From positions 1,502 to 65,501 of the forward strand of contig JBAYJB010000003.1 of NCBI GenBank assembly GCA_041665325.1: a stretch of DNA of 64,000 nucleotides, written 5' to 3'. The notes below the pieces were generated by a model, which was given only the letters and a program-made list of their open reading frames with translations, had not been told where the DNA came from and ran no database searches. The position numbers were made by a program, and so were the translations under genes. The DNA comes from Minisyncoccota bacterium (GTDB taxonomy: Bacteria; Patescibacteriota; Minisyncoccia; Phycocordibacterales; PALSA-1337). Below, piece after piece: positions 15,751-59,259 of this stretch (its first letter is position 1; each line of letters begins with the position of its first letter).

Positions 15751-15765
15751 ATGTTTGTACCAACT

Positions 15766-15826: not shown

Positions 15827-15889
15827 ACTTGGTGCAATCTACTCTCATTATATGCTCGGTTCCGGAATCCGCAAGTATGACGCTCCATG

Positions 15890-24313: not shown

Positions 24314-24323
24314 GGATAGCAAA

Positions 24324-25859: not shown

Positions 25860-25874
25860 CTTAAACAAGAAGAC

Positions 25875-27155: not shown

Positions 27156-27868
27156 AAAAAACGTTGAAAGCCATGATCCGAGCGTTAGTCAAGCTGATTC
27201 CGCTCGAATTTATTGAGCAGATGATTTCCTTGAAGATGGGCTATCCAACGATCTCGTATGGTCCAAACGGAGAAGACGCCATTTTAAGGAACATGCTCCG
27301 CGGCATAAGCGGCGGCTTCTACATAGATGTTGGCGCATATCATCCCAATAGGTTTTCTAATACACGCACCTTTTACAATGATGGCTGGTCCGGCATAAAT
27401 ATAGATGCGATGCCAGGTAGCATGAAAGCGTTCATGAAAGAGCGCCCCAGAGATATCAACCTCGAATCAGCCGTATCTGACAGGACCGAGACATTGACAT
27501 ATCACGTGTTTGCGGAACAAGCATACAACACCTTCTCTCATGAATTGGCAACGGAGTGTGTAAAGTCAGGGAAAAACAAAATACGCGAGATAAAACTCGA
27601 CACGATGCGGCTTGTAGACATCCTCGATGAGTACATGCCGAAAGACAAAATAATAAATTTGCTTTCGATCGATGTGGAGGGATACGATATGGCGGTTCTC
27701 CGATCAAATGATTGGATAAGGTATCTCCCCGAGGTCATAGCTATAGAAGAAATTGGCTTCGACGTCGAGGCTCCCCAGAAATCAGAGATATTCAACTTCC
27801 TCAAAAGCAAAGGTTACCATCTGGAAGTGGCTATGCCCAAAACGATATTTTTCCGTCTACACAAATGA
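27152..27868 (+). CDS. FkbM-family SAM-dependent methyltransferase.
   Basis: GFYIDVGAYHPNRFSN...GINIDAMPGSMKAF...ESAVSDRTETLTYHV matches the FkbM-family pattern. Start placed at MKKTLKAM, forming an ATGA overlap with the wzt stop. Confidence 0.75.
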   Translation: MKKTLKAMIRALVKLIPLEFIEQMISLKMGYPTISYGPNGEDAILRNMLRGISGGFYIDVGAYHPNRFSNTRTFYNDGWSGINIDAMPGSMKAFMKERPRDINLESAVSDRTETLTYHVFAEQAYNTFSHELATECVKSGKNKIREIKLDTMRLVDILDEYMPKDKIINLLSIDVEGYDMAVLRSNDWIRYLPEVIAIEEIGFDVEAPQKSEIFNFLKSKGYHLEVAMPKTIFFRLHK

Positions 27869-29574
27869 AACCACTTAAGACCCCTATCCTGTTCATTGCC
27901 TTCAATCGTCCAGGACCTACTAAGGATGTTTTTGCGGAGATCCGTAAGGCACGCCCCGAAAAACTCTTCGTGGCAGTCGATGGCCCGAGAAAAGACCGGC
28001 CAGAAGATGTGGACAAAGTAAACAAGGTTCAGGAGATAGTGAGCCAAGTAGACTGGCCATGTGAAGTAAAAAAACTCTTCAGAACAGAGAACCTCGGATG
28101 CAAAATCGGCGCGACTTCGGCTATCACATGGTTCTTCGAACATGTCGAGGAAGGCATCATTGTGGAAGACGACTGTCTGCCGGAACAATCCTTCTTTGCC
28201 TTCTGTTCTGAAATGCTCGAGCATTTCCGCAATGAGCCGAGGGTAGCCATGATCTGCGGGTATAACATAGAGAAGACTTCTGATCTTCCGTATTCCTATA
28301 CCTTCTCACGCTACGGACATCTCTGGGGCTGGGCTTCATGGAAAAGGATCTGGGATCAATACGATGTGACCATGAAAGTTTGGGACAATATTGATAACCG
28401 CAAGAAGATTAGAAAAGCCATGGATGATTATCGGCAATGGAATTATCGCGAGTGGCTATACAATGAGACCTACGAGGGTCGCAAGGATACGTGGGACTAC
28501 CAGTGGGAATCATATCGCCTACTTCATAGTCAGATCTGCGTGATCCCAAATAGGAACATGATCAGAAATCTGGGTTTTGGCGCCGATGCCACTCACACCA
28601 AGCAAACTACTTCGCACCTCGTCATTCCAGGACAAACCATGAAGTTTCCTCTAGCACATAATCCAGACCTGGTAGCCAGTGACTACTATGATCGACTACT
28701 CCGCCCCAAGATCAAAGCCCAAAGCCGACTGCGGAGATCGCTCAAGGATAGAAGCTTTAGACTGGGGAAACTATTGCTCCCGCCATTCATATATCAGTTA
28801 GTCAGGAAGCTCATCCGGGGCACAAAAGTATGGAAGCCTATCTGGAATACCCTTGATTATGAACCGATGGCCGGAGTGAAGATGTTCTTTGACCCTTCCG
28901 GCTCCTGGCAGAGCAAGATGAAGAATGGGTCGTATGATAAGTTCATGTTCGACCGAGTATCCGCCATCGGCGCCGAAGGCAAGGTGATCTACGATATCGG
29001 TGCACATGTCGGATACCATTCCCTCTATTTCGCCCGGCTTGTTGGTAAAAACGGCAAGGTTATCACGATTGAACCTAATAAGAAGAACTTTGAGCGCCTA
29101 AAGAAGAACATAGACGAAAACAAGGATCTGAAAGAAAGGATATCAGCATTTAATATTGCGGTTGGAGACAAGGATGGGAAAGTGGAATTCAACATAAATG
29201 AAGATGTCGAGGGAGGTCGTAGCACTGGCAGCTTCATAGGCACGGCCGACACATTCTCAAGCCGCGAGACATATAAGAATAAGGGGTTCACAAAAACTTC
29301 TGTTGACCTAGTGACTATAGATTCATTTGAGAAGATGCTTAGCATTCACGACGCTCCAGACATCATCAAAATCGACGTTGAGGGCGCCGAGTCATTGGCT
29401 CTCGAGGGCGCCAGGGGAATCTTACTCGCTAAGAAACCGGTGCTTTTTGTCGAGATCCATTCGATGAGAAACATGTCAGATGTCATGAACTTCTTACACT
29501 CGATATCATATGAGGCCAAGATCGCTAATATTGAGGGCAATGGGGTGTGTTATATAGAGGCACACGCTAAGTGA
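27865..29574 (+). CDS. Fusion of a GT-A-fold glycosyltransferase-like domain (EDD motif) with a C-terminal FkbM-family methyltransferase.
   Basis: N-domain ILFIAFNRPGPTKDVF...LFVAVDGPR...GIIVEDDCLP. C-domain VIYDIGAHVGYHSLYFARLVGKNGKVITIEPNKKNFERLKKNI...IIKIDVEGAESLALEGA is classic FkbM. ATGA overlap with the upstream gene. Confidence 0.7.
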   Translation: MKPLKTPILFIAFNRPGPTKDVFAEIRKARPEKLFVAVDGPRKDRPEDVDKVNKVQEIVSQVDWPCEVKKLFRTENLGCKIGATSAITWFFEHVEEGIIVEDDCLPEQSFFAFCSEMLEHFRNEPRVAMICGYNIEKTSDLPYSYTFSRYGHLWGWASWKRIWDQYDVTMKVWDNIDNRKKIRKAMDDYRQWNYREWLYNETYEGRKDTWDYQWESYRLLHSQICVIPNRNMIRNLGFGADATHTKQTTSHLVIPGQTMKFPLAHNPDLVASDYYDRLLRPKIKAQSRLRRSLKDRSFRLGKLLLPPFIYQLVRKLIRGTKVWKPIWNTLDYEPMAGVKMFFDPSGSWQSKMKNGSYDKFMFDRVSAIGAEGKVIYDIGAHVGYHSLYFARLVGKNGKVITIEPNKKNFERLKKNIDENKDLKERISAFNIAVGDKDGKVEFNINEDVEGGRSTGSFIGTADTFSSRETYKNKGFTKTSVDLVTIDSFEKMLSIHDAPDIIKIDVEGAESLALEGARGILLAKKPVLFVEIHSMRNMSDVMNFLHSISYEAKIANIEGNGVCYIEAHAK

Positions 29575-29578
29575 TCAC

Positions 29579-30520
29579 ATGAAGATCCACATCATCACTA
29601 TTTTCGACAAGAATCGCCTCGGGAGAGCCCTAGCGTTCAGAGAGTCGCTTGCAAAATATGCTCCCGGTTGCCATGTGCGCTTCCTTTGTCTTGACCAGGA
29701 GGCATACGATATGACCAACCGGCTCAATCTCGACGATACTACCGCTATGCTTCCGGAGGAGCTAGATGACAAGGAACTTCTAGCCACACGTGCTGGACGA
29801 ACCAATCCGGAGTTCGCGTCGACTTGTAAGCCGGCACTGCTCTCCTACATGATGGAGAGTGGCGTCGTCGAACAAAACGACCTCTTGGTCTTCATAGATG
29901 ACGATTTCTTCTTCTATCAACCTCTCCTGCCCCTGTTCGAAAAGATTTATCACTCTGGTTCTATTGCCATAACCCCACACCGCTTCCCTCCTCATCGTGA
30001 ACATGAGACAGCCACCAAGGGCATATACAATGCCGGTATCGTCTTTTTCAAGAATGATCCCGAGGCGCGAAAATGCCTCAAGGAATGGCGCCTGCAGTGT
30101 CTGAAGTGGTGTTACCTGCGCTATGAGAATGGTCAGATAGGCGATCAGGGGTACCTCAGTGATTGGCCTAAGAAGTATAAGGGCGTCTATGAGATTCCGG
30201 ACATTGGCGTCAATCTCGGCACCTGGAATATCAAAAACTACAAGATTACCAGGAACGTCGGTGGAGACCTTATGATTGATGACCAGCCGCTCATCTGTTA
30301 TCACTTCCATGGGCTTAGGTTATATCTAAATAAACAGAATAAGGTACGGGCCTATCCGATCACGGTCTTACATTCAGGGATTTATAAGCCTTGCATAGAA
30401 GCCTTGGAAAAAGCCTATATAGGATTGATGATCGTAGATCCGAAGTGGGTGTATGGAACCATTGCTAGGCCAAGCATGTTGAGGCTTTTGAAACAAGCCA
30501 TCTTGAGGTTGAAATATTAA
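29579..30520 (+). CDS. Putative GT-A-fold glycosyltransferase (nucleotide-diphospho-sugar transferase-like).
   Basis: LVFIDDDFFFYQPL DxD-type motif and Rossmann-like N-terminus. 313 aa. No closer family assignment is possible by eye. Confidence 0.45.
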   Translation: MKIHIITIFDKNRLGRALAFRESLAKYAPGCHVRFLCLDQEAYDMTNRLNLDDTTAMLPEELDDKELLATRAGRTNPEFASTCKPALLSYMMESGVVEQNDLLVFIDDDFFFYQPLLPLFEKIYHSGSIAITPHRFPPHREHETATKGIYNAGIVFFKNDPEARKCLKEWRLQCLKWCYLRYENGQIGDQGYLSDWPKKYKGVYEIPDIGVNLGTWNIKNYKITRNVGGDLMIDDQPLICYHFHGLRLYLNKQNKVRAYPITVLHSGIYKPCIEALEKAYIGLMIVDPKWVYGTIARPSMLRLLKQAILRLKY

Positions 30521-30544
30521 CGCTTTAAGACTAATATCAGCCAC

Positions 30545-33175
30545 ATGCAGAAAATAGTCATAACAGGCGGGCTGGGATATGTAGGTACCGAGCTATGTAA
30601 GCTTTACTCCGGCGAGGCACGCTTCAAGAAGATTGTGGTCGTCGATAATCGATTCTTCTCGTCCCGTGTCACACAGCTCAGAGATTGGGGTATGGAATTC
30701 ATTCATGGCAACATCCTAGACAAGGATCTCATGAAATCCATTCTTGCAGATGCTGACATCGTATACCACTTGGCAGGCATCACGGATGTTTCTTATACCA
30801 AGAATGAATCAAGTGAGGCCAAAGATAGGCTTATAACTGAGGTCGGCGTTACGGGCACGAAGAATATCATCGACTACTCACCGGCAAAGGCTAAAATCAT
30901 CTTCCCTTCAACGCACGTGGTCTATGAAGGATTCGGCAAGACAAAATTCAACATCACTGAAGATGAACTAACAGTGCCGATGCTTTCATATGCTATGGGT
31001 AAGGATCAGTCTGAAAAAGATCTGATGGCATCAAAAAAGAATTATGTGATCCTCCGCTTCGGATCAGTATATGGATACTCGGAATCAGATACCATGCGTA
31101 TCAACATCATGCCGAATCTGTTCTCCAAGATCGCTTCGCAGAACGGCACAATCAGTCTCTTCTCCGGTGGAGTACAGTACAAGAGCCTGGTCTCACTCGT
31201 AGATGCCGTTCGGGGCCTAAAATTCATGGGTGAGTCAAAGATAAACCGCGAGATTTTCCATCTATGCAACGAGAACATGACGGTCAAGGAAGTGGCTGAT
31301 GTATGCAAGAAGATCAATCCATTAGTAAAGATCATTTCGACTAAGGACGAGATACCAAACTTGGGATATACCACATCAAACAAAAAGCTATTGGCTACCG
31401 GCTTCACATTTAAACACAATATTGAGAGTAGTATCGCTGAGATGATAAGCGCCTGGTCAGCCAAGGAGCTGCCGGATGCTCTGGAATATACAGTACGCGG
31501 CGACAAGGAATTCATCGATGCACGCGGCAAGATCAGCAACTATGAGCTGACGGAACCGATAAACTTGATAGGTTACATCGAATCAAAAGCCGGCACAGTC
31601 CGCGCCAATCACTACCACCCAATCCAGGAACAGAAGTGTCTTGTCATCACAGGGTCATACATAAGCGTCATCAAGGACTTGGCTTATCCAGATGCCCTAG
31701 TCGAAACGCGCCTCATCAAAGCTGGAGACATCGCTGTCATCAGGCCCAATGTAGCCCACACCATGGTATTCCTCGAGGATACGGTATTTCTCAACCTAGT
31801 GCGCGGAGAACGCGAGCATGAGAACTACGGAGTGACGCATACGATCCCTTACAAACTTGTCGACGATAAATTTAGAGACGAACTCCTCAAGAATTTCAAA
31901 CCGGAGTGCCGTTCGTGCGGTAAAAAAAACTTGAAGGACGTTGTCACCCTTGGACTTTCTCCACTAGCCAATAATCTATTACCGAACAAAGATACGCATG
32001 CCGAGATGTTCCCTCTCGAAATGAAGTATTGTCCGGATTGCCACAATTGCCAGTTGTCATTTACAGTATCGGCCCACAAACTATTTGATCACTATCTCTA
32101 TGTATCCTCGACAGCCAAAAGCTTTCGCAAGCATTTTGAAGAAGCGGCTGAACAGTATCTGAAGCAATTCAATCTCACCAAGAAGGACCTTGTTGTAGAT
32201 ATCGGCAGCAATGACGGCATTGCGCTCCGCCCTCTCAAGGCCAGAGGCATCAAAGTCCTAGGCATCGAGCCTGCCAAGAATATCGCCGACCTAGCCAACG
32301 CCGAAGGCATCGAGACCGTCAATGACTATTTTAGTAAGGCCGTCGTAGACAAGATCATCAAAGAAAAAGGCAAGGCTACCTTGATCACTGCTTCCAACGT
32401 ATTCGCTCATTCTGACTTCCTCAAGGATATCGCCATAAATGCCATGAAGCTCCTCAAGGACAACGGCCAATTCATCGTTGAGGTCCAATATCTCATGGAT
32501 ACGATTAAGGATCTGACTTTCGACAATATATATCACGAGCATGTGAACTATTGGTCGGTCACTTCGATCAACAACTTCTTTGAATGTTTGGGCTTCAAGG
32601 TCGTTAAGATAGAACATATAGATACTCACGGCGGATCAATCCGTGTCTATGTCAAGAAAGGCGGCAAACCTGACAAGAGCGTCCTTGATTCGCTCAAAGG
32701 CGAAGAGGTCTTCGGACTTAAGGATTACCAGACTTACCTTAAATTCGGACGTGATATCGCAGATTTGAGAGAAGTCGTCAAACGAAATATCGGATTACTA
32801 AAGAAGAACTACAAACACATCGCCGGATATGGGTCTCCAGCCAAAGCCACAACAGCTCTTAACTATTTCGGCATAGACAACACTCATATCGATTACATCA
32901 TCGAAGACAACGAGCTCAAGAACGGCAAAATCGTTCCTGGCGTAATGATCCCGATCAAAAATAAGCAGTACGCATTTACTCATTTACCAGAGGTCATCAT
33001 AGTCATGGCTTGGAACTTTTTCGAGGCAATCAAGAATAACAACGCCGAGTTAACCAATGAGGGCGTGATCTTCATAAACATCAAGGATTTGCAGGATAAG
33101 AATTTTAAAGTGCCAAGAAGTCTCAGGAGAATCACTAAGAATAGGGTTTCTAAGAAAAAGGCTCTAAAGAAATAA
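30545..33175 (+). CDS. Trifunctional nucleotide-sugar tailoring protein: NAD-dependent SDR epimerase/reductase + WxcM/FdtA-like cupin (sugar 3,4-ketoisomerase-type) + TylC3/NovU-type sugar C-methyltransferase.
   Basis: The SDR domain has VITGGLGYVGTELC and YAMGK (YxxxK). The cupin domain has RANHYHPIQEQKCLVITGSYISVI. The C-MT domain has a Zn-ribbon CRSCGKK...CPDCHNC followed by VVDIGSNDGIALRPL, and ends in the C-methyltransferase C-terminal region. 876 aa. Confidence 0.7.
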   Translation: MQKIVITGGLGYVGTELCKLYSGEARFKKIVVVDNRFFSSRVTQLRDWGMEFIHGNILDKDLMKSILADADIVYHLAGITDVSYTKNESSEAKDRLITEVGVTGTKNIIDYSPAKAKIIFPSTHVVYEGFGKTKFNITEDELTVPMLSYAMGKDQSEKDLMASKKNYVILRFGSVYGYSESDTMRINIMPNLFSKIASQNGTISLFSGGVQYKSLVSLVDAVRGLKFMGESKINREIFHLCNENMTVKEVADVCKKINPLVKIISTKDEIPNLGYTTSNKKLLATGFTFKHNIESSIAEMISAWSAKELPDALEYTVRGDKEFIDARGKISNYELTEPINLIGYIESKAGTVRANHYHPIQEQKCLVITGSYISVIKDLAYPDALVETRLIKAGDIAVIRPNVAHTMVFLEDTVFLNLVRGEREHENYGVTHTIPYKLVDDKFRDELLKNFKPECRSCGKKNLKDVVTLGLSPLANNLLPNKDTHAEMFPLEMKYCPDCHNCQLSFTVSAHKLFDHYLYVSSTAKSFRKHFEEAAEQYLKQFNLTKKDLVVDIGSNDGIALRPLKARGIKVLGIEPAKNIADLANAEGIETVNDYFSKAVVDKIIKEKGKATLITASNVFAHSDFLKDIAINAMKLLKDNGQFIVEVQYLMDTIKDLTFDNIYHEHVNYWSVTSINNFFECLGFKVVKIEHIDTHGGSIRVYVKKGGKPDKSVLDSLKGEEVFGLKDYQTYLKFGRDIADLREVVKRNIGLLKKNYKHIAGYGSPAKATTALNYFGIDNTHIDYIIEDNELKNGKIVPGVMIPIKNKQYAFTHLPEVIIVMAWNFFEAIKNNNAELTNEGVIFINIKDLQDKNFKVPRSLRRITKNRVSKKKALKK

Positions 33176-33220
33176 GTCATAAAGAAAACATCGGTTATCG
33201 CGCTCCGCAAAAAATTGATT

Positions 33221-34123
33221 CTATTTTACATGACCTTCTAACACAAAACGTCTTTTGACACGGTAATCGTATATACCGATGAATCGACAGACGAGACTGA
33301 GCATCGGGGCAGTGAAATGATCGTATTTTTCCTGACTAAAACGATATATAAGTTTGGTAAGTGTGGAATCCGGATGTGTATCTATATATTTGATAATCTG
33401 GAGGGCCGGCATTGTCTTCATGGGACCGCCAGCAAAGTGGATAAAACTGTTCTTGTGATACATTTCCAATATTTTTGAAAGGCTCCGACCGAAAGCCGTC
33501 CGATAACACGCGGCAATCGTATTAAATCCTGACGGAAGCTCTACCCCCCTCTTATCATTGAGTAGATGATAGGAAAGTGGACCATTCTCCCAACATCTCT
33601 GCTCTGGATAGGTATCATAGACCATTTCAAGCATGGGCTTGATATCTTTGGAGACGATGAATACCCCAGTATTCATGAGAACATCGGGCCGGTTGTTTGC
33701 CGGGCACCCATCGTAAAGTTCTAGATCCGTGCGCTTCAGCCCTTTCAAATTGTAAGGATTGTTTGCAACAATTCCCCACTGCATATCACCTATGAAACTA
33801 AATGGATCAGCGGCATGGCTGGTGATATATACATCAGCATCCACGAATAAGGCCCTGCTATACTTTGCGACTCGCGGATGATCAAATATGAGCAGTTTTT
33901 GCCAAGCAACATGTTTATCTGATCTTCGCAGGGGCTGATCAATAATCACCAGCTCGAAGCCGTTTTTCTCCGCATATCTTTCGAGACTTCCGCAGAAAAG
34001 CTTACGGAATTTTATTGAGAAAGTATCGCCAATCGCAATGGTGACCAGAACTTCACGCTTCCTATCGTCGTGGTGGTCGAGGGTCATAATGTGTGGTAGA
34101 TTAGCATATAATCCAACCATCAT
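33221..34123 (-). CDS. Putative GT-A-fold glycosyltransferase (DxD motif FVDADVY).
   Basis: 300 aa, cytoplasmic, with ...ALFVDADVYITS... The family cannot be resolved by eye. Confidence 0.4.
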   Translation of the reverse strand: MMVGLYANLPHIMTLDHHDDRKREVLVTIAIGDTFSIKFRKLFCGSLERYAEKNGFELVIIDQPLRRSDKHVAWQKLLIFDHPRVAKYSRALFVDADVYITSHAADPFSFIGDMQWGIVANNPYNLKGLKRTDLELYDGCPANNRPDVLMNTGVFIVSKDIKPMLEMVYDTYPEQRCWENGPLSYHLLNDKRGVELPSGFNTIAACYRTAFGRSLSKILEMYHKNSFIHFAGGPMKTMPALQIIKYIDTHPDSTLTKLIYRFSQEKYDHFTAPMLSLVCRFIGIYDYRVKRRFVLEGHVK

Positions 34124-34212
34124 GAAAGGTGTCGTTCTATCCGAAGGACGCGATATTGAGGGGATAATTTAGCAAAATACTGCCCCGAAGAAGGTGGTTA
34201 GCAAGAAGTAAT

Positions 34213-35220
34213 ATGCCTGATAATAAAAAAATCCTCGTGACTGGCGGCCTTGGCTTCATCGGAAGTTGTTTTACCGAGATGGCCCTGAAAAGAGGATACG
34301 AAGTCATCAATGTAGACAAGATGACCTATGCTATACGAGAAGATACTGACTTTGAGAAGTACCCAAATTACACTTTCCTCAAGAGAGATATAAATGACCT
34401 TGTGAAAATACCCCCTGAAGTGAGTTGGGTCATTAACTTTGCGGCCGAATCTCATGTAGACAACTCCATCAACGAAGCTGCGCCGTTCTTCCGGAGCAAT
34501 GTCGGCGGTGTATACCACCTGCTACAACTTCTAAAGGCCATGCCAGCGACAAGGAGGCCTACCCTGCTACAAATATCGACTGATGAGGTCTATGGAGATA
34601 TCCTAGAAGGATCATTCTTCGAGACTGACATGCTCAAACCTTCTAGCCCATACTCTGCGAGCAAGGCGGCGGCGGACCAGCTGGTCATGGGCTGGGGACG
34701 GACATACGACATACGCTATCGCATCGCGAGAAGTAGTAATAATTATGGTTATGGCCAGAGAGCTGAGAAGCTGATTCCTAAAGCTATGAAACTGGCTATC
34801 AGAGGTAAAAAGATACCTGTGCACGGTGATGGGTCATATCGCAGGGAATGGACCTTTACTGAAGATAATTGCGAAGGTCTGTTTGCTATCATGGAAAAAG
34901 GCACTGATGGAGAGATTTACAATATTTCAGCCCGGGAGGAATTGACCAACCTGGAGGTGATAAAAAAGGTGCTTGGAGTGATGGGAAGACCGGATGACCT
35001 ATACGAATTCGTAGAGGATCGTCCGGGACAAGACGTGCGCTACTCCATAAACACTGACAAGATTCGTGCACTAGGTTGGAAACCAGCCATGACACTAGAC
35101 CGCTACTTACCAATCTGCAAGAAACTCAATGAGGATAGAACACGTTCTATGCCGCCCGGCAAGAAAGAGCGTCTAGCAAAAATCTTTGGCCTCAAAAATA
35201 TACTTTATCGGAAGTCGTAG
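34213..35220 (+). CDS. rfbB: dTDP-glucose 4,6-dehydratase.
   Basis: ILVTGGLGFIGS...YxxxK (YSASKAAAD) and overall RmlB-type SDR organisation. 335 aa. Confidence 0.85.
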   Translation: MPDNKKILVTGGLGFIGSCFTEMALKRGYEVINVDKMTYAIREDTDFEKYPNYTFLKRDINDLVKIPPEVSWVINFAAESHVDNSINEAAPFFRSNVGGVYHLLQLLKAMPATRRPTLLQISTDEVYGDILEGSFFETDMLKPSSPYSASKAAADQLVMGWGRTYDIRYRIARSSNNYGYGQRAEKLIPKAMKLAIRGKKIPVHGDGSYRREWTFTEDNCEGLFAIMEKGTDGEIYNISAREELTNLEVIKKVLGVMGRPDDLYEFVEDRPGQDVRYSINTDKIRALGWKPAMTLDRYLPICKKLNEDRTRSMPPGKKERLAKIFGLKNILYRKS

Positions 35221-35714
35221 CGCTCCTTCAGTGCCTGGATGATTGGAATATGGATGAGCAGAAGGTCCTCTGGCATCTCTGTCAGAGGAAAGAACTTGGC
35301 GATATCACTCTCCTCGACATTGCCCGGCTTCTCGCAAACAAACATAAGAGTGATGACATCTCCACGGGGGCTTTCGCCGATGCCATTGCCGGGTTGATAT
35401 TGGAACCATCTGTAGAACTCGTAGGGTGTAGATGACGACATACCCATCTCACTCGTGATGACCCTGTCTAAGGTATCCTCGAATTTCTCGTTCGGGAGAT
35501 GGATAGAACCGGGTATGTGCCAACCCTTGAAGAATTCATCCTCCCTATAAGTAAGAAATATCTCACGTACTCCATCATTATTCCTCATGACCGCCAATTC
35601 TGCTGCGATTGTCGGAAAGGCTAGACACCAAGCGGAAAAAACTTCAGGAGGCAATGGGAATGTCACCTTGCCCATAAGCTTGATAAGCTCGTTCTGTTCT
35701 TGAGATGCCAGCAT
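35205..35714 (-). CDS. Hypothetical protein with a degenerate Nudix box. Possible nucleotide-sugar hydrolase.
   Basis: GSIHLPNEKFEDTLDRVITSEMGM partially matches Gx5Ex7REUxEExGU; the two Glu positions are replaced. 169 aa. Confidence 0.35.
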   Translation of the reverse strand: MLASQEQNELIKLMGKVTFPLPPEVFSAWCLAFPTIAAELAVMRNNDGVREIFLTYREDEFFKGWHIPGSIHLPNEKFEDTLDRVITSEMGMSSSTPYEFYRWFQYQPGNGIGESPRGDVITLMFVCEKPGNVEESDIAKFFPLTEMPEDLLLIHIPIIQALKERYDFR

Positions 35715-35754
35715 GGCTTTGCAATAAAGTTATATGCTGTAGAATAACATACAT

Positions 35755-36450
35755 ATGAAAAATCCAATAAGAAAAATGCTAAACAAGGCCGGATTAGACC
35801 TGCGTAGACACCACCCCGAAGCCGACCGCCTGGCCTGGCTGTCGGGCATGAATATCCAGACGGTCTTCGACATCGGCGCCAATATCGGGCAGTTCGCCAC
35901 GGAGATCCGCGCCGCGTTGCCAGATGCACAGATCTACTCCTTCGAGCCACTCGCGGGATGCTACGGTAAGCTCGTCGGTGCATTCAAGGGTGATCAGAAG
36001 TTCCGCGCTTTCAACTATGCGCTCGGGGAAAGAGCGGAGAAGATCGCCATGAATAGGAGCGCTTACACGCCGAGCTCTTCCCTCCTGCCTATGGCCGATT
36101 CGCACAAAGAACTTTTCCCTCACACCAAAGATTCCTTGCCGGAGACCATAGAGGTGCGACGGCTAGACGATGTCTGGGCCGAACTCAAGCCGGTCGGAGA
36201 AGTCCTCATCAAAGCTGACACACAGGGTTACGAAGCCAGAGTCATCGCCGGAGGCCTAGAAGCGTTCAAACAAGCAAGGGCCGTACTCATTGAAGCTTCG
36301 TTTGTAGAACTATACGAAGGCCAACCGCTTTTCGACGACATATATCAGAAGCTCAAAGCTCTCGGTTTTGTCTATAAGGGCGCCTTGCACCAGAAGATCA
36401 ACAATAAAACAGGCGAGGTCATATTCGAGGACGCGATATTTACGCGTTGA
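35755..36450 (+). CDS. FkbM-family methyltransferase.
   Basis: VFDIGANIGQFATE...IYSFEPL...NYALGERAEKIAM...IKADTQGYEARV. A TAGAAT box sits 9 nt upstream of the ATG. Confidence 0.8.
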   Translation: MKNPIRKMLNKAGLDLRRHHPEADRLAWLSGMNIQTVFDIGANIGQFATEIRAALPDAQIYSFEPLAGCYGKLVGAFKGDQKFRAFNYALGERAEKIAMNRSAYTPSSSLLPMADSHKELFPHTKDSLPETIEVRRLDDVWAELKPVGEVLIKADTQGYEARVIAGGLEAFKQARAVLIEASFVELYEGQPLFDDIYQKLKALGFVYKGALHQKINNKTGEVIFEDAIFTR

Positions 36451-46540: not shown

Positions 46541-48307
46541 TTATAGGCTATATATGGTCTTTTGGTCATGCGGACAATCATACACCCTAGCTGTGACATT
46601 CTTGGAATCCGATCCGAAGAGAGTCCGACATTGCGCGAAGAACTTGTGATAGAAGCCGCCGGGGTCGAGCTTGGGTATGTCGACGACCAGATATTGGCCG
46701 TCGAAGGCGGCGAATTTGGCACGATATCCCCCTTCAGATTCCGGTGTCGCGTATATTCTACCGGCATACTTGCCCATGATAGACAGCGGCCCGGCGCCGA
46801 TATCATTGTAAGTGATGACCTGCTTGATATCTTCGGAATTTTTGATAAAGATGACAGCTTCCTGGAGAACTTGTGGCGCATTGCCATTGATCCCGCCATA
46901 CAGAAACTCCTCGGCGAAGACGCCGTTGTACGCGAGGCCGATGATGACGAGGATGATCAGGGCACAGTCCCGCCACGACTTCTTGAAGAGCCCTATGAGC
47001 GCGATCCCCGCCGCAACGAGATACGAAAAGGCGATGAACAGGAATGATATATAGAAGCCCATCGGCCCGGAACCGCCATTGAGCGGTGTGAGGATGTTCC
47101 AGTAGCCATGAATGACCCGTGAGAACCACAGGGTCTTGGGGTACAGGGCGACGACTGATTGTGGCAGGAAGTTGAGGGCGATGAGGATGACGGCGATGAT
47201 GAGGCCGATGATTATAGCCGCGCCCTCTCGGCGACAACAGTACATCCGCTCGCTCGTCCTCCTTGCGTCCTCCTCCTCGCGGAGTACTGTTCTCGCCTGC
47301 GGGCACGACCAGGAATCAAAGACCTTGCTCAAGATCATGCCGGTGATCGCCGCGAGCGGCACGATGGCGAACATCAGATATTTGTCGAGTGCCGCGCGGG
47401 AAAAGTCGAAGACCACAAAGTAGAATAGGAAGCCGATAGCCAGATAGAGCCAGAATGGCAAAGTCTTCTTGAATATCTCTCTCGAAGAAAATAAGAGCGG
47501 CACTAGCATGAGCGGCGAGATATAGTAGATCGCCTTGGCACCCTGCACGATGATCTGCAGCCAATTCCGGCCAGCATCACCTGAATATTGGTTGGCATGA
47601 TCCAACATCAGACTGATGCTGAAGGCCGGGTACACGGCTTGGATCAGGTAGAGCAGGCCTATATAGACGGCGACAAATACGGCCGCGCCGAGGATACCCG
47701 CTCCGGCCCATCGGAAAGAAAGTTGTTTCCTGATTGACCACAGGTAGTCTGCGGCTATCGCCCCGATGCCCAGGATGAAATTCAATTTGATGAGCAAGCC
47801 GAGCAGAAGTACGACGATGAGCGCGGCGAGCCAATACCCTCTTTGGGCAGGCTCGGCGCGGTGCCATCTGTCATACGCAAACACGGCCAACAGGAAGAAG
47901 AACGGCAATATGGCTCCGTCAACATCCGGCGAAAGAGAGCCAAGGATATTGTAGAAGCAAACGGCGAGAAGTCCGACCGATATGGCTGCCGTCCTGCGGT
48001 CAGAACGATCCTTGATCACGAAATACAGGAGGATCGCCGAGCCGATAGAGAACAGCAGCGGAAAAAGCCGGAAATGATCGACGCCGAATACGGCGTGGGC
48101 CGCCACGAACATCATCTGCATGAGCGGCGGGTGGGCATAGAATGTCCCGGCTCCGGCCACGGTCTCGGAGGTCGCCACATTCTTCCATTCATCCTGGTGA
48201 TAAGGGAGATCTACGCCCGGCAGGCGCAGAACCAGGAATAATACGGCGATTCCGGCAATCACTAGTGTAGCTTTGGTACGCGGAGTCATAGTCGATGATG
48301 TGGACAT
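46541..48307 (-). CDS. GT-C-fold membrane glycosyltransferase (ArnT/PMT-like). Contains palindromic element copy 2.
   Basis: 588 aa and polytopic, with DLPYHQDEWKNV DE motif in the first loop. The element encodes ...ARTVLREEEDARRTSERMYCCRRE... in a cytoplasmic loop. Confidence 0.65.
   Translation of the reverse strand: MSTSSTMTPRTKATLVIAGIAVLFLVLRLPGVDLPYHQDEWKNVATSETVAGAGTFYAHPPLMQMMFVAAHAVFGVDHFRLFPLLFSIGSAILLYFVIKDRSDRRTAAISVGLLAVCFYNILGSLSPDVDGAILPFFFLLAVFAYDRWHRAEPAQRGYWLAALIVVLLLGLLIKLNFILGIGAIAADYLWSIRKQLSFRWAGAGILGAAVFVAVYIGLLYLIQAVYPAFSISLMLDHANQYSGDAGRNWLQIIVQGAKAIYYISPLMLVPLLFSSREIFKKTLPFWLYLAIGFLFYFVVFDFSRAALDKYLMFAIVPLAAITGMILSKVFDSWSCPQARTVLREEEDARRTSERMYCCRREGAAIIIGLIIAVILIALNFLPQSVVALYPKTLWFSRVIHGYWNILTPLNGGSGPMGFYISFLFIAFSYLVAAGIALIGLFKKSWRDCALIILVIIGLAYNGVFAEEFLYGGINGNAPQVLQEAVIFIKNSEDIKQVITYNDIGAGPLSIMGKYAGRIYATPESEGGYRAKFAAFDGQYLVVDIPKLDPGGFYHKFFAQCRTLFGSDSKNVTARVYDCPHDQKTIYSL
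47226..47305. repeat. ~80-bp imperfect palindromic element, copy 2, embedded in-frame in the GT-C gene.
   Basis: ctctcggcgACAACAGTACATCCGCTCGCTCGTCctccttgcgtccTCCTCCTCGCGGAGTACTGTTCTCgcctgcgggc. Same plus-strand orientation as copy 1, but translated in a different frame. Confidence 0.75.
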
Positions 48308-51900: not shown

Positions 51901-53064
51901 TCAAGAGATATCGGCCAGGATGTCCTTCATGTTAGCGGCGATGTTCGCCCAACCATACTTCTCCTCGACCAGCTCTCTGGCGCGCCCGACGACATAATCT
52001 CGCGACTCCCGATCCTTGGCTAGTTTCTCAGCTTTCTGGGCGATGGACTTAGGGTTGCCGACTTCGCAGAAGAAGCCCGTCTCGCCGTCCGTCAGGAAGT
52101 CTGGGATACCACCGACCGGCGTGGCGATGACCGGGATACCGGCCGCCATAGCCTCCAGGAATGAATTGCCGAGGCCCTCGGAGCGCGACGGTCTGACAAA
52201 GATGTCAGAAATCTGCAGATATTGCGGCAGATTTTCGTGCGATACGAAGCCCTTGAATACAACTCGGCCATCAAGCTTCAAGTCACGAATCTGGGTCCGC
52301 AAAGCTGATTCGTCATGGCCCGTTCCGATATTCAGGAACTTATATGGAGTGTCCAGATGTCTTAGAGATGAGATGATGTCGTCGACGGCGTTCTTGTATA
52401 CCATGCGGCCGGCCGTCACAAGCACGATGTCTTGGTCGGTGAAGCCGAGCTCCCTGCGCAAGGCCGATTTGCGCTCCGGCGCGAGCGGCGCAGAGAAGTG
52501 CTCGTAGTCAACACCGTTCGGGATGACCACAACCGGGCATACTGCTCCCATGTGGCGCGACCAATCAGCCAGATAATTCGAGATCGTCTGGATATGGTTC
52601 GCTGCCGCAAAAATCTTCCGAAACCAGGGCGAGAGGACTCCTTCACGGCGTTTGAAATGGTCGCCCTCCTGGATGGTCAGGAATATCGGAACCTTCGGTT
52701 GCTTCTTCTTGAAAAGATAGGCGGCATATCCGGCATAGCTCGCCATGATGGCCCAGACCGCATCGTATCTTTCCACACGGTGGAGTCGTCGAGCTTTGGC
52801 AGAGGCGACAAATGGAAAAAATAGCTTTTGGAATATGCCGACATCATCGAAGACACGGAAGATCCTCACATTGCCGATCTGTTCTTCCCTCTTACCGCGG
52901 CCGTCGCCCAGAGTGATCATATCGAACTGCATCTCGTTTTTTGAGATACGATCAGTGATCTCCTTCACGGCGACTTCCGCCCCGCCGATGAGGAGGGGGT
53001 AGTAAGATAATGAGAATATCAGGACTCGGCGTGGCTTCATGCTTTCATACTTCCATACCTTCAC
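51901..53064 (-). CDS. GT4-family glycosyltransferase.
   Basis: VLIFSLSYYPLLIGGAEVAV... and SEGLGNSFLEAMAAGIPVIATPVGG. 4-nt overlap with the upstream gene. Confidence 0.75.
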   Translation of the reverse strand: MKVWKYESMKPRRVLIFSLSYYPLLIGGAEVAVKEITDRISKNEMQFDMITLGDGRGKREEQIGNVRIFRVFDDVGIFQKLFFPFVASAKARRLHRVERYDAVWAIMASYAGYAAYLFKKKQPKVPIFLTIQEGDHFKRREGVLSPWFRKIFAAANHIQTISNYLADWSRHMGAVCPVVVIPNGVDYEHFSAPLAPERKSALRRELGFTDQDIVLVTAGRMVYKNAVDDIISSLRHLDTPYKFLNIGTGHDESALRTQIRDLKLDGRVVFKGFVSHENLPQYLQISDIFVRPSRSEGLGNSFLEAMAAGIPVIATPVGGIPDFLTDGETGFFCEVGNPKSIAQKAEKLAKDRESRDYVVGRARELVEEKYGWANIAANMKDILADIS

Positions 53065-54902
53065 TCGACTTTCAACACGTTCTTTAGAACATCTTCGGGG
53101 ACCTCTTTTAGTGATTCTTTCAGCGACTGGGAGGTGGGCGCCGGTGATTTGATAGGTGGCTGGATAGGCGATGGGGCCGGTCTGGTCACAAGCTCGTCAG
53201 ACTTCTTGCCGAGTGCAGCGGCGAGAGCGCTCTTCAGCCCTTCGACATTCTTGGGGGTCTGCGCCTTGGGATCGACCTTGGCAACCGGCTTCGGAGCGAG
53301 GGTGGTCAAAGGAATCGGCTTCACCGGTTCCGGCTTTGCCTCGGGAACGAGTGGTTGGGGCGGCTTGGATTGGACCGGAGGAACACCCTTCGGGGCAACG
53401 ACCTGACCCAGGTTGGCAAATGGTTTGTGCGTCGGCTGTGGGACAGGCGGCTTCGGAGGAGCCTGCGTAGAGGGTTTGACGGCAGCCGCGTTCGTAGGCG
53501 AGAGCGGTGTCGCGCGAGGAGGAGCCGGAGGCGAAGAGCGAGCGGGAGCACTGCTCTCGCCGAGAGGACGCGGCGGCAGTGCAACCTTCGGCAACGGTAC
53601 CGATATGGGCTTCGGCGTCGGCTCGTGGAATTTGACGATCTCGGCCTCGACACCAGCGCGCGGCTTAGCGAACTGCTCGCGGGAAGCGGCCAGGATCTCC
53701 TGAACATATGATGCATCCGGGTGCGCAAATGGCGGCAATCCTCGGGCCGAGAAGGGCGGCGAGGTCAGGCCGTCGATCATGAGCTTGAGATACATCTGAT
53801 ACTGGCCGAGATTGACTAGATCCTCGACAGTGAACTGGGGCATGAATTCATTCTCAAGGAGCTCGGCATCATTGGCCCCGATCCGGAAGACGATCATGGT
53901 CCCCACGTTACCGAAGACGGCCGGACGTACAAATTCATCCATTTGCTCGACATATTGGTGAGCGATGGTCAGATTGAGCTTGTATTTACGGGCTTCGGAG
54001 AGGATGTCGGCGAACGAAGCGTTGGCGAAGTTCTGGAATTCGTCGACGAAGAGATAGAAGTTCGGCAGGACCTTCATGATCCGATCCGGGACATCGGCGC
54101 GCGACATGGCGGCCAGGTATATCTTGGTGACCAGAAGGCCGCCGAGGAGCTTCATATTCTCGTCGCCGATCTTGCCCTTGGACAAGTTGATGATGATGAT
54201 CTTGCGCTTGTCCATGGCCTCGCGGAAATCGAAGGACGAATGCGGCTGACCGATCATGTTCCGGATCAGCGGATTGGCGGTGAATTGGCCGACCTTGTTC
54301 TGGATGGCTGGCACAGCTTCAGCGGCCATACGCTCCGTGTAGCCGGCGAATTCCTTGACCCAAAAGGCCTTGACCGAGGGGTCTTGGACATGGGAGACAA
54401 TCTCCTTCCTATATTCCTTGTCGGAAAGCATCCTATTCACGCCCAAGAGAGTCGAGCCGGGCGCTTCGAGGAGAGCCAAGAGCGTGTTAGTCAGGATATA
54501 TTCCATGCGGGCTGACCAGGCATCTACCCAGATCTTCTTGAAGGTGCTCATGAGGCCGGAGACTACTAGATGCCTCTTCTCGGGAGTGACGCTCTCAAGC
54601 ACATTGAATGAGATCGGGTACTCGGTATCGAACGGCGCGATGTATATAACATCGCGGATGCGGTCTTTGGGTACGTATTCGAGGAGGAGGTCTACGGTCT
54701 TGCCGTGCGGATCGATGAAGCACATGCCTTCCCCGCCCTGGATATCTTGCACTGCCATAATCTCCAAGAGATTGGACTTGCCCATGCCGGTCTTACCGAT
54801 GACATAGACATGGCGCGTGCGGTCCTTGGCCTTGATGCCGAACTTGACCCGCTTGTTGCGGGCGTCAGTCTCGGCGAAGTATGTGATGCGATTGTCGTCC
54901 AT
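53061..54902 (-). CDS. TraD/VirD4-like type IV secretion coupling-protein-family ATPase with a ~180-aa Pro/Lys-rich disordered C-terminal tail.
   Basis: Walker A VIGKTGMGKS and Walker B LFVDEFQNF, with the overall TraG/TraD/VirD4 layout (…AHQYVEQMD…VFRIG). No N-terminal TM helix. Confidence 0.65.
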   Translation of the reverse strand: MDDNRITYFAETDARNKRVKFGIKAKDRTRHVYVIGKTGMGKSNLLEIMAVQDIQGGEGMCFIDPHGKTVDLLLEYVPKDRIRDVIYIAPFDTEYPISFNVLESVTPEKRHLVVSGLMSTFKKIWVDAWSARMEYILTNTLLALLEAPGSTLLGVNRMLSDKEYRKEIVSHVQDPSVKAFWVKEFAGYTERMAAEAVPAIQNKVGQFTANPLIRNMIGQPHSSFDFREAMDKRKIIIINLSKGKIGDENMKLLGGLLVTKIYLAAMSRADVPDRIMKVLPNFYLFVDEFQNFANASFADILSEARKYKLNLTIAHQYVEQMDEFVRPAVFGNVGTMIVFRIGANDAELLENEFMPQFTVEDLVNLGQYQMYLKLMIDGLTSPPFSARGLPPFAHPDASYVQEILAASREQFAKPRAGVEAEIVKFHEPTPKPISVPLPKVALPPRPLGESSAPARSSPPAPPRATPLSPTNAAAVKPSTQAPPKPPVPQPTHKPFANLGQVVAPKGVPPVQSKPPQPLVPEAKPEPVKPIPLTTLAPKPVAKVDPKAQTPKNVEGLKSALAAALGKKSDELVTRPAPSPIQPPIKSPAPTSQSLKESLKEVPEDVLKNVLKVE

Positions 54903-55023: not shown

Positions 55024-55443
55024 TCACCCACCGACGGCGTGCAGATAGTTGTGCCGGCGGATCGGGCTTGTCGTCACCGTGAGGATGGGGTGACAACTGC
55101 GCGGGATGGCAGGACCATCTGCCGGAGCTGAGGCCAAGGCGGCCTCGTATTCACCACGAGTTTGAAACCCCAGACTGGAGATCTCGTCCATGGTGAGCCA
55201 ACCTTCTCCCGGCGCCCTCTCGACGACGATAGTGGGTCTGCTCGGCGGCCTGTAGGGGGCCACCGTATTGGATTTGTTGCCCACAGCCACCTTTGGGATG
55301 ACAAACGGGACAACGGTCTTACTGACAACTGCTGCAGGTTGACCGCTAGGGGTAGCGGCCACCGAAACCTTGCTCCCCTTACGGGAGCGAGACTTTGATT
55401 TTTTCACGACTTTACTGATTTTGACCAACCTTGCATCTACCAT
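55024..55443 (-). CDS. Hypothetical basic protein. Possible HTH-like C-terminus.
   Basis: ORF with its own downstream terminator. Lys/Ser-rich N-terminus. C-terminal GWLTMDEISSLGFQTRGEYEAAL is weakly HTH-like. Confidence 0.4.
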   Translation of the reverse strand: MVDARLVKISKVVKKSKSRSRKGSKVSVAATPSGQPAAVVSKTVVPFVIPKVAVGNKSNTVAPYRPPSRPTIVVERAPGEGWLTMDEISSLGFQTRGEYEAALASAPADGPAIPRSCHPILTVTTSPIRRHNYLHAVGG

Positions 55444-55642
55444 ATGTCTGCCAGATTGCACTCCATGTGCAGAGCGACAGGAGTCCATCAGGGGAAACGG
55501 ACTTCGACCACACCGCTTTTGAGGCGTCCCGATAGATATCGGGAACAGACAAACGTAAACACAAGAGATTACCAATCCGGTTTCATATAGTAACGCTTTT
55601 TGGCCAAAAAGCAAGGGGCTGTGGATGGCGCCAGAAAGCCCC

Positions 55643-57195: not shown

Positions 57196-57897
57196 CTAAC
57201 GATTGCTCACAATGACGACGAACTCGCCGCGCACCGTATCCGGATGGATTTCAAAATATCGAGCGGTCTCTGCAGCCGTGCCGCTCACCACTTGTTCAAA
57301 TATTTTAGTCAGCTCGCGACAGACCGTCACACGCTTGCCTGCGACGTCAAGATGCAGAGCAAGAGACTCCAGAGTCTTTTCGATACGATGAGGCGATTCG
57401 TAGAAGACCACAGTACGTTCCGCGACGGTGATCTCCTTGAATAGGGTCTCTCTTCCCTTCTTGTGCGGCAGGAAGCCCAGGAATACGAAGTCGGCACAGG
57501 GCACGCCGGCGATCGACAGAGCGGCGGTCAGAGCTGACGGGCCGGGCACAGACTCGATCTTCAACCGGCCATCAGCTAGTTCGACTGCCATGTCCTTACG
57601 GAGCCGCGAGACCAGCTCGGCCCCGGGGTCGGATATGCCGGGGGTGCCGGCGTCGGAGACCAAAGCGAGATTCTTGCCCTCGCCCAACAATCTGATGATC
57701 CCCTCTACTCGGGAGATCTTGCTATGCGCATGGTAGGACAGCGTCGGTGTCTTGATGCTGTGCCGGTCAAGCAACCGCTTGGTCATGCGGGTATCTTCGC
57801 AGAGGATCACATCTGCCGCCGCGAGGGTCTTGAGCGCCCGGAGGGTGATGTCCTCGAGATTGCCGATGGGGGTGCCGACGATGGATAAGGTAGACAT
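57196..57897 (-). CDS. rsmI: 16S rRNA (cytidine1402-2'-O)-methyltransferase.
   Basis: LSIVGTPIGNLEDITLRALKTL..ADVILCEDTR...ALVSDAGTPGISDPG is the tetrapyrrole-methylase-fold RsmI signature. Start placed at MSTLSIV. Confidence 0.85.
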   Translation of the reverse strand: MSTLSIVGTPIGNLEDITLRALKTLAAADVILCEDTRMTKRLLDRHSIKTPTLSYHAHSKISRVEGIIRLLGEGKNLALVSDAGTPGISDPGAELVSRLRKDMAVELADGRLKIESVPGPSALTAALSIAGVPCADFVFLGFLPHKKGRETLFKEITVAERTVVFYESPHRIEKTLESLALHLDVAGKRVTVCRELTKIFEQVVSGTAAETARYFEIHPDTVRGEFVVIVSNR

Positions 57898-58020
57898 GTG
57901 TTGTTCCAGTATAGTCGTGCCCGCAGGCGAGAACAAGTCCTCCGCGAGGAGGAAGCGAAGCTGAGGATCGAGTGGAGGACTGTTGTCGCCGAGAGGGCGC
58001 GTGTATGATAGTGTAAACGC

Positions 58021-59259
58021 ATGACTACCCGGGAAACCGTCATCTATGTGACCAGGGAGATCGAGAGGGCCCTCGGTATGGCCCCGAATGAGCATTATCT
58101 CATCGTCACCAACCGCACCGCTTATGGCGTGAAGGTGCGCGATCAATACCCCGACTTCGTGACCCTCATAGCAGATCAGGCCGGCGAGCTCCTCGGGACC
58201 GGTGACCTGCTGAAGCATGAACAGACCGAGGAACTCGTAGCCAAGGTCGCCAAAGCCTCCGGAGCAAAACCTTATATCCTGGTCTTCAAGAATACCGCCC
58301 GGATCGAACCCTTGGTCCGCGACCACGGCTGGATGCTCCTCAATCCGAGCGCGGCTTCATCCGAGAAGATCGAGAGCAAACTCTCGCAGATCGGGTGGCT
58401 CGCCGAGCTCGGCAGATACCTGCCGGCACACCGCATGGCCTCGATGCGCCATGTCCCATTCGAGGGCAAACCCTTCGTCATCCAGTGGGCGCACGGCCAT
58501 ACCGGCACAGGCACGATCCTGATCGAATCGGAAGAGGCCCTCAAGGCCGTCCAAGCCAAATTCCCCGAACGCTGGACGCGCGTCACCGAGTATATTCGAG
58601 GGCCGTCATTCACGGTCAATGTGATCATCACCCCGGATCGCGTGGCGGTCGGGAATGTCAGCTACCAGATCACCGGGCTTCCCCCCTTCACGGACAACCG
58701 CTTCACCACGATCGGCAACGACTGGGGAGTGGCGCGCACTCTGCTCACAGCCGACGATAAGAGCCGGCTGGACGAGATGGTCCGCGAGATCGGGGCCAAG
58801 ATGCAAAAAGATTATTGGCGCGGCCTCTTCGGTATAGATGTCATCAAGGATATCGACAGGAACAAGCTCTACCTCATCGAGATCAACGCCCGACAAGCGG
58901 CTTCATCGCCTTTTGAGTCATCCTTGCAGGAAGAACAGCGCTCCAAGGGAGCTCAAGGTCTGACCGTCTTCGAAGCCCATATCGCCGCCCTCCTCGGACA
59001 GCCGGTGGTCAAGCCGATCATCGAGATCAAGGAGGGCGCCCAGATCGTCCAGCGTGTCACCAAAGATGTCCGTTCCGTACCGGCAGAAGCCGCAGGCGGG
59101 CTAGAGCTGGCCGGGTACAATGTCGTGGCTTATGAGAATACCAAGGAAGGATCCGACCTCCTCCGCGTCCAGAGCGCAAAAGACATCATGGCCGCCGACG
59201 GCGCCTTCAACGACAAGGGCAAGGAGATATCTGGCATCGTCAGCGGCAGGGGCTTGTAG
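58021..59259 (+). CDS. ATP-grasp-fold enzyme (carboxylate-amine ligase-like), function unknown.
   Basis: 412 aa. ...FVIQWAHGHTGTGTILIESEE... and ...LYLIEINARQAASSP fit the ATP-grasp B/C-domain pattern. A TATGAT box sits 11 nt upstream of the ATG. Confidence 0.5.
   Translation: MTTRETVIYVTREIERALGMAPNEHYLIVTNRTAYGVKVRDQYPDFVTLIADQAGELLGTGDLLKHEQTEELVAKVAKASGAKPYILVFKNTARIEPLVRDHGWMLLNPSAASSEKIESKLSQIGWLAELGRYLPAHRMASMRHVPFEGKPFVIQWAHGHTGTGTILIESEEALKAVQAKFPERWTRVTEYIRGPSFTVNVIITPDRVAVGNVSYQITGLPPFTDNRFTTIGNDWGVARTLLTADDKSRLDEMVREIGAKMQKDYWRGLFGIDVIKDIDRNKLYLIEINARQAASSPFESSLQEEQRSKGAQGLTVFEAHIAALLGQPVVKPIIEIKEGAQIVQRVTKDVRSVPAEAAGGLELAGYNVVAYENTKEGSDLLRVQSAKDIMAADGAFNDKGKEISGIVSGRGL

Follow-up and report, generated by a model that had tools for sequence, protein, structure and literature searches.

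What is a long, hairpin-forming palindrome doing inside an intact gene for a membrane enzyme? The question is raised by a 64,000-nt stretch of a Minisyncoccota (Paceibacteria) genome from the candidate phyla radiation (CPR), contig JBAYJB010000003.1, positions 1,502–65,501 (hereafter the window), in which a glycosyltransferase gene carries such a palindrome without loss of its reading frame. We find that this palindrome, here called copy B, is one member of a family of GC-rich imperfect palindromes, with a core of 66–84 nt and a length of about 95 nt including an outer stem, whose copies are dispersed in both orientations over unrelated genes and one intergenic gap and whose hairpin is maintained by compensatory substitutions. 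The family is probably a selfish, non-autonomous repeat of the type of the repetitive extragenic palindromes (REPs) and the Rickettsia palindromic elements (RPEs), tolerated and translated in disordered protein loops of this genome.

A repeat family in coding DNA

Copy B is an imperfect palindrome at 47212–47311 on the minus strand by covariance-model bounds (106.8 bits), with a conserved core of 84 nt at 47220–47303; the position given in the first-pass annotation of this DNA, 47226–47305, was essentially right. Folded as RNA, its coding (minus) strand reaches −55 kcal/mol (z = −7.2) and its plus strand −40.8 kcal/mol (z = −4.4). The host gene, 46541–48307 on the minus strand, encodes a 588-residue multi-pass membrane glycosyltransferase resembling PMT_2 and glycosyltransferase family 39 (GT39) enzymes (Pfam PMT_2, E = 1e-7). 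Its 328 homologues are about 550–575 residues long, and their source names include several entries for glycosyltransferase family 39 and the taxa Patescibacteria, Candidatus Taylorbacteria and Paceibacterota.

The open reading frame (ORF) continues through copy B, which is translated as ...SCPQARTVLREEEDARRTSERMYCCRREGA... and adds about 28 residues at positions ~335–363 of the protein. In a 20-sequence alignment, this insert is absent from the closest homologue (P0002, 66–69% identity) and from most others, and its site is a length-variable loop between two membrane helices. The AlphaFold model of the protein has a mean predicted local distance difference test score (pLDDT) of 83 and a predicted template modelling score (pTM) of 0.85; its sole long low-confidence stretch, residues 334–356 (pLDDT <50), lies at the start of the element-encoded segment, the rest of which is modelled as an extension of helix 347–380. 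Judged by the order of helices in the model and the Arg-rich peptide, the loop may be cytoplasmic. Across the host proteins, predicted peptides spanning the element include, for example, ENSTPRGGASDER and REEEDARRTSER. The hexamer TATAAT follows copy B.

The initial reading of this DNA counted two copies of the element. Repeat, pattern and covariance-model searches instead recover five sites in the window, four of them full copies and the fifth a half remnant. Copy A (14058–14151, minus strand, 88 bits; core 14066–14143, 78 nt) lies in frame and in sense orientation in a gene whose SecA domains are confirmed by Pfam, where it is translated as PVEENSTPRGGASDERADVLLSPGGS in a loop of NBD1; as the first-pass annotation had stated, it shares the plus-strand orientation of copy B and is read in a different frame. 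Copy C (53483–53579, plus strand, 95.5 bits; core 53491–53571, 81 nt) is antisense to its host ORF, 53061–54902 on the minus strand, which encodes a TrwB/TraG-like P-loop ATPase (Pfam TrwB_AAD_bind, DUF87 and TraG-D_C), and encodes PRPLGESSAPARSSPPAPPRATPLSPTN within that protein's C-terminal tail, which is rich in Pro. Copy D (57912–58008, plus strand, 96.6 bits; core 57920–58000, 81 nt) is intergenic and occupies most of the 114-nt gap between an rsmI-like methylase gene (57196–57906, minus strand) and a divergent ATP-grasp gene (58021–59259, plus strand). Within this gap (57907–58020), −10-like hexamers adjoin the ends of copy D, TATGAT on one side and TATACT on the other; a sigma-70 scan around the copy found no full promoter. 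Remnant E (55212–55244, minus strand) consists of one arm, the 3′ half, about 73% identical to copy B and located in ORF 55024–55614 on the minus strand, where it is translated as ...RPTIVVERAPGEG...; it has no hairpin, and its fold (z = −0.9) is not better than those of shuffled sequences.

Copy D is 85% and copy C 69% identical to copy B; for copy A the figure is 73% overall and rises to 90% in the inner stem and loop. A 20-nt arm core has 4 matches in the window, compared with 0.02 expected, and a gapped pattern has 4 matches, compared with none in 100 shuffles, excluding a chance origin of the repeat family. Weak covariance-model matches at 2663–2750 and 15752–15843 are not family members. 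At 15755–15837, the start of a MurB-like gene holds an unrelated inverted repeat, with 25-nt arms that are 88% complementary and 33 nt apart, which matches the covariance model only weakly.

The copies do not share a reading frame: copy A is read in one sense frame, copy B in the next, remnant E in the third and copy C in antisense. Every intragenic copy is in frame, has no stop codon in the frame used and is missing from the closest homologues; the copies sit in length-variable or disordered loops, where translation should add 26–28 residues. The first-pass annotation had gone further, proposing that palindromy and frame independence together make the element free of stops in every frame, a hallmark of selfish intragenic repeats and, if it held, an indication of selection for coding neutrality. 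Copy B is indeed stop-free in all six frames, a result equalled by 12 of 2,000 shuffles and by 0.5% of the 85-mers in the window. The generalization fails for the family, as one to three of the unused frames are interrupted by stops in each of copies A, C and D and only two of six family members (copy B and one homologue elsewhere) are fully open. Six-frame openness is thus a property of copy B, not of the family, and much of the poverty in stops is explained by a purine- and GC-rich composition. The core lengths of the six members (84, 81, 81, 78, 75 and 66 nt) are all multiples of three, which in five of the six copies is forced by survival in frame.

The hairpin and its relatives in SecA genes of other genomes

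The element folds into an outer stem of 10 bp, an internal loop (5′ strand G(C/U)A, 3′ strand GAGA), a stem of 5 bp (GGYGA/UCRCC), a G·G mismatch, and an inner stem of 13 bp with a one-base bulge that is capped by a purine-rich loop of 15–29 nt. A constant framework, G(C/U)AG-GYGA ... UCRCC-GAGA, flanks the inner stem. The tag directly 5′ of the GGYGA stem reads GTAG in copies A and C and GCAG in copies B and D and in two copies found in SecA genes of other genomes (loci L111 and L113, described below). While the GGYGAGA/TGTCRCC framework is conserved, the true ends of the element, formed by the outer stem, vary and covary. Across copies, fold z-scores on the stable strand range from −3.5 to −7.2.

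Two alignments establish that the hairpin is maintained by compensatory substitutions. First, in an alignment of the four window copies made with MAFFT and not fitted to any structure, 92% of cells are paired, compared with 31–52% in slid controls, and 7 pairs are changed on both sides. Second, in an alignment of six copies from three genomes, which was fitted to the model and so favours the structure, 92% of cells are paired, compared with 31–51% in slid controls; 13 of the 28 pairs are changed on both sides, and the observed covariation score was reached by none of 500 shuffles. Wobble pairs are unevenly distributed between the strands: on one strand there are 11 G·U pairs, some of them common by descent, and 3 A·C pairs, all of which fall in the degraded outer stem of copy A. 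This bias is suggestive of selection on one single strand, which could be RNA or single-stranded DNA.

A conserved block in the loop (47264–47281 in copy B and 57938–57953 in copy D) could form an alternative small hairpin, CUCC-GCGA-GGAG, with a GNRA-type loop. It would compete with the top of the main stem and is absent from the homologues at L111 and L113.

Copy A lies in NBD1, between residues aligned to positions 157 and 166 of Bacillus subtilis SecA (PDB), where the B. subtilis loop has 8 residues. Compared with the closest element-free SecA (P0122, 78% identity, locus L118), whose empty loop is at L118:10493–10528, copy A is a clean block of 78 nt, or 26 codons. Further family members occupy the same loop, in the same frame as copy A and in sense orientation, at L113 10575–10656 (GCA_037144235.1, Candidatus Taylorbacteria; 45 bits with the covariance model) and at L111 699–789 (43 bits). 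As the SecA proteins encoded at these two loci are 81% identical, their insertion is probably shared by descent within a clade. Relative to the window copies, their framework and outer stem are conserved or covarying, and their inner stem is wholly rewritten and still paired. Including the outer stem, full elements measure about 82–100 nt across the family.

Sequence likeness follows the genome more closely than the site. In the inner stem and loop, identity among copies A, B and D is 78–90%, whereas copy A is only 39–49% identical there to the SecA copies of other genomes. On these sequence comparisons, the greater likeness within the genome points to amplification or homogenization there, and it is not expected of a functional RNA tied to one locus.

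The same SecA loop has also received unrelated sequences. Among 118 close homologues from Paceibacteria, its length varies from 51 to 118 residues. At L114:2332–2469, the insert is an unrelated palindrome, which we call family 2 (−71/−82 kcal/mol, z = −8.6); at L119:6535–6660, it encodes VIPAKAGIQ...LDSRLRGNDK and contains a 31-bp near-perfect palindrome (−80 kcal/mol, z = −13); at L121:6511–6642, it is an imperfect palindrome (z about −3); and at L120:6514–6612, it is an AT-rich direct repeat with no hairpin. At least three palindromic families unrelated to that of the window are thus present among the fetched SecA-loop inserts. A literature search by peptide strings for the VIPAKAGIQ-type repeat returned noise only. 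The SecA insert at L114 shares a 41-nt block, at 88% identity, with an insert in the GT39 loop of another genome (L116, 2271–2450), so that a second, unrelated family has colonized the same two loops. Because unrelated palindromes occupy them, the SecA and GT39 loops are permissive landing sites, and the SecA loop is a recurrent one.

The SecA loop of P0148, TSAVLAGDGADP, resembles the L111 insert, TSAVPAG[...22 aa...]DGVTD, minus exactly the inner hairpin, and, judged by sequence, could be a deletion footprint or a pre-insertion state. In a related strain, the gene for P0121 (L110:590–3250, compared with 12017–14677 in the window) encodes a SecA that is near-identical from about residue 100 and strongly diverged over the N-terminal ~100 residues, a pattern that suggests recombination between strains within the SecA gene.

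Likeness to known repeats and rival explanations

How might such copies arise? We propose that new copies would be made at the DNA level, by an enzyme whose gene lies elsewhere in the genome and which recognizes the element as a folded single strand. Given the GYAG tag and the G·U bias of one strand, the best guess, although an unproven one, is a Y1/HUH enzyme similar to the REP-associated tyrosine transposases (RAYTs). Selection would then purge insertions that break genes, so that in a genome that is ~90% coding the surviving copies would be those that are in frame and lie in permissive loops. The hairpin would be kept either as a requirement of the lineages that propagate or by exchange between copies, rather than for any need of the host proteins for the peptide.

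In-frame 'protein-coding palindromes' are best known from Rickettsia, whose genomes are reduced and gene-dense; the Rickettsia palindromic elements were reportedly described by Ogata et al. in 2000. RPEs are stem-loop repeats of 105–146 bp that lie in frame in 19 Rickettsia genes, and one host enzyme that was tested is still active (PMC2229807, PMC10969869). Similar to RPEs, the window family is a dispersed palindrome inserted both between genes (one copy) and in frame in conserved housekeeping genes (SecA, GT39 and the ATPase tail), in a small-genome host with little non-coding DNA. It likewise forms a long stem-loop through terminal inverted repeats, with 92% of 28 pairs kept, and its peptide would fall in a tolerated surface region, with which the low-pLDDT GT39 loop, as modelled, and the SecA NBD1 surface loop are consistent. 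The family differs from RPEs in being shorter (core 66–84 nt), in its host (CPR/Paceibacteria rather than Alphaproteobacteria), in its G(C/U)AG tag, as opposed to CGTC in the RPE-4 and RPE-6 type (PMC3733652), and in being translated in several frames and from both strands rather than as one conserved peptide per family. Neither sequence relatedness to an RPE family nor membership by descent is expected, as the host, judged by the names of its protein homologues, belongs in Patescibacteria, near Candidatus Taylorbacteria; the likeness is one of structure and behaviour.

The REPs provide the second comparison. They carry an unpaired GTAG/GYAG tag beside the stem, complementary stem changes and frequent G·T pairs; intragenic GTAG/CGTC units encode 20–30 residues (Di Nocera et al. 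2013, PMC3733652), and mobilization is thought to be due to RAYTs (PMC3733652). The window family shares the unpaired GYAG tag 5′ of the stem, the covarying stem, the G·T pairs on one strand and the intragenic units. By contrast, REPs are 20–40 bp long, with stems of 5–13 bp and loops of 2–20 nt, and are mostly extragenic (PMC3733652), whereas the present element has an interrupted inner stem of 18 bp, a loop of 15–29 nt and an additional outer stem of 10 bp closed by the GAGA bulge; three of its four full window copies are intragenic, and no RAYT was seen in the 64 kb or among the called genes of the fetched loci. The element behaves like an RPE or a REP by analogy rather than by demonstrated descent. 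A further likeness is to the PARCELs (palindromic amphipathic repeat coding elements), which also place palindromic coding sequence in genes of minimal-genome microbes; PARCELs are described as tandem repeats within genes, forming domains from which surface repeat proteins are built, and they differ in this from a single dispersed hairpin in unrelated enzymes (PMC2996958).

Candidate identities set aside on a reading of the sequence include an integron attC site (there are no GTTRRRY-type boxes), a K-turn at the internal GCA/GAGA loop (its second sheared pair would have to be G·G) and a head-to-head REP dimer (the arms are not themselves hairpins).

Several results weigh against a selfish REP/RPE-type repeat. 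First, mobility is undemonstrated: filled and empty alleles were not seen within one population, and neither the about 50 ORFs of the window, which encode housekeeping functions and a large surface-glycan cluster, nor the fetched flanks include a transposase, RAYT or integrase. One weak rve match, next to the SecA gene with the unrelated family 2 insert, is the sole transposase-type exception in the fetched sequence. A framework-pattern search of viral contigs gave no match, nor did BLAST against phages and plasmids. Second, the six copies show no consistent target-site duplication; CGGCAG occurs on both sides of copy C and ATAG-like repeats surround copy D, with nothing consistent at copies A and B or at L111 and L113. 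Third, in size the element exceeds REPs and falls short of RPEs, and its copy number refers to the 64-kb window and not to the whole genome. Fourth, at one SecA site the hairpin has been retained between proteins of 81% identity, which could reflect selection for a host function.

Fifth, public collections supply little independent material, as scans find the narrow subfamily, defined by the loop block CGCGAGGAGGA, nowhere else. It is absent from 185,579 species-representative genomes searched with the pattern CGCGAGGAGGAN{25,50}TCSCCGRGAGG, a negative that, as the pattern requires the subfamily-specific loop block, does not extend to the wider family of L111 and L113. The 107 pattern matches in those genomes are all single chance matches in GC-rich genomes, without the loop block or arms. 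A three-block pattern applied to 241 million metagenome records matched only the locus of copy D itself, in a near-identical strain. A six-frame peptide search of a protein database returned only the two host proteins, its filter being probably saturated by low-complexity words. Our literature search found no description of such elements in CPR bacteria. The first-pass proposal of a selfish intragenic repeat in permissive loops holds for the dispersal, the unrelated host genes and the nature of the loops, and does not yet hold for mobility itself.

The persistence of the hairpin in SecA is also part of the case for a different explanation, that the hosts select an RNA structure in their mRNA, such as a stabilizer, a ribosome pause or an RNase III site, with the peptide as a by-product. 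The covariation is strong; the wobble pairs are nearly all G·U on one strand, which is the sense strand in SecA, GT39 and both SecA homologues from other genomes; the SecA site retains the structure despite the rewritten inner stem; and copy D directly precedes the ATP-grasp gene, in sense orientation. We nevertheless consider this explanation unlikely. Copy C runs antisense to the gene that holds it, the host genes have unrelated functions, and the closest relatives are without the element both in SecA (L118) and in GT39 (P0002). Copies within the genome are more alike than copies at the same site in different genomes, and elsewhere that site is filled by unrelated palindromes. Rfam has no family above its gathering thresholds, and permissive searching returned only microRNA-like hairpin noise far below them. 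The wobble bias, moreover, would equally fit G·T pairs in a single-stranded DNA intermediate. GC skew, which follows the coding strand and shows no switch between copies B and C, yields no replication-linked explanation for orientation.

An origin as a classical miniature inverted-repeat transposable element (MITE), a deletion derivative of an insertion sequence (IS) moved by a DDE transposase through its terminal inverted repeats and leaving target-site duplications, is similarly improbable. In-frame fusions are known for bacterial MITEs, namely the 107-bp form of Correia, ERIC and YPAL (PMC2229807), and the window family resembles these in being small and non-autonomous, in having a long stem-loop transcript and in fusing its frames to those of its hosts. 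Its length of ~95 nt is within the MITE size range, its inverted termini are alike (GGCGAGAACAG / CTGTTGTCGCC), and the short direct repeats at copies C and D recall duplicated targets. Yet none of the six copies shares a consistent duplication or a terminal TA dinucleotide with the others, and no transposase or parent IS is known or present in the fetched sequence, apart from the weak rve match near family 2. The pattern of conservation also differs: an inverted repeat bound by a protein would conserve its terminal sequence, whereas here pairing is kept along the whole stem by compensatory change, and inner stems from different genomes share almost no sequence.

It is very doubtful that the element is an intervening sequence, similar to a mini-intron or intein, that is removed after transcription or translation to leave mature proteins without the insert. 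Core lengths that are multiples of three would keep the frame on removal, and paired ends would bring splice points together. However, the lengths are already accounted for by in-frame survival in five of the six copies, open frames would be unnecessary in an excised segment, group I and II introns and inteins are all far larger than 66–84 nt, Rfam gives no match, and one copy is antisense and another intergenic.

Finally, an assembly artefact, or a gene-conversion tract common to two loci only, has almost no chance of being correct: although palindromes can cause chimeric joins in short-read assemblies, identical copies occur in three independent assemblies from different projects (copy B in the Logan assembly of SRR6484324, L001; copy D in JGI contig Ga0265292_1038347, L109; and copy A in an ENA contig of a related strain, L110), the host reading frames continue correctly on both sides of the copies, and at least four diverged copies (69–85% identical to copy B) and a remnant exclude conversion between two loci. 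Both possibilities had been named in the first-pass annotation as what would refute its reading; mis-assembly is judged unlikely here from the three assemblies.

Elsewhere in the window, positions 1–7000 contain an extensive repetitive region: units with a period of 147 nt lie at ~1620–2600, and 300-nt modules are duplicated at 830–1129 and 2777–3076. The gene there probably encodes a giant surface repeat protein, by its sequence; the syntenic product at L110 exceeds 2365 residues and runs off its contig. GC content falls to 0.45–0.49 at ~24000–36000, compared with about 0.55 elsewhere, over a methyltransferase, sulfotransferase and ABC-transporter part of the glycan cluster, a stretch that may have been horizontally acquired.

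Implications for CPR genomes

The part most worth following is the wider pattern, in which multiple palindromic families occur in the same loops of CPR proteins. The occurrence of an unrelated in-frame family in CPR and of at least three further families in the same SecA loop suggests convergence. A broader proposal, which we advance tentatively and hold to be less probable than the selfish origin of the window family, is that in Paceibacteria, and perhaps in CPR generally, several unrelated palindromic families repeatedly colonize the same permissive loops of essential proteins and remain there through long divergence while compensatory evolution keeps their hairpins paired; they would then be a main source of the large length variation of those proteins. 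Under this proposal, the window family would be a GYAG-tagged, REP-like folded single strand in coding DNA, maybe co-opted as an mRNA structure in SecA.

These observations bear on several areas. For annotation, an odd insert of low complexity in a conserved CPR protein may prove to be repeat DNA rather than a lineage-specific domain. For assembly, hairpin repeats break contigs and can mislead the binning of CPR genomes. For protein evolution, essential proteins would have in such repeats a ready supply of new loop sequence. Should the GYAG tag indeed be the mark of a single-strand mechanism of the RAYT type, REP biology would extend to CPR and to coding DNA. Where a genome has almost no non-coding DNA, translatability may be the main reason why small hairpin repeats survive.

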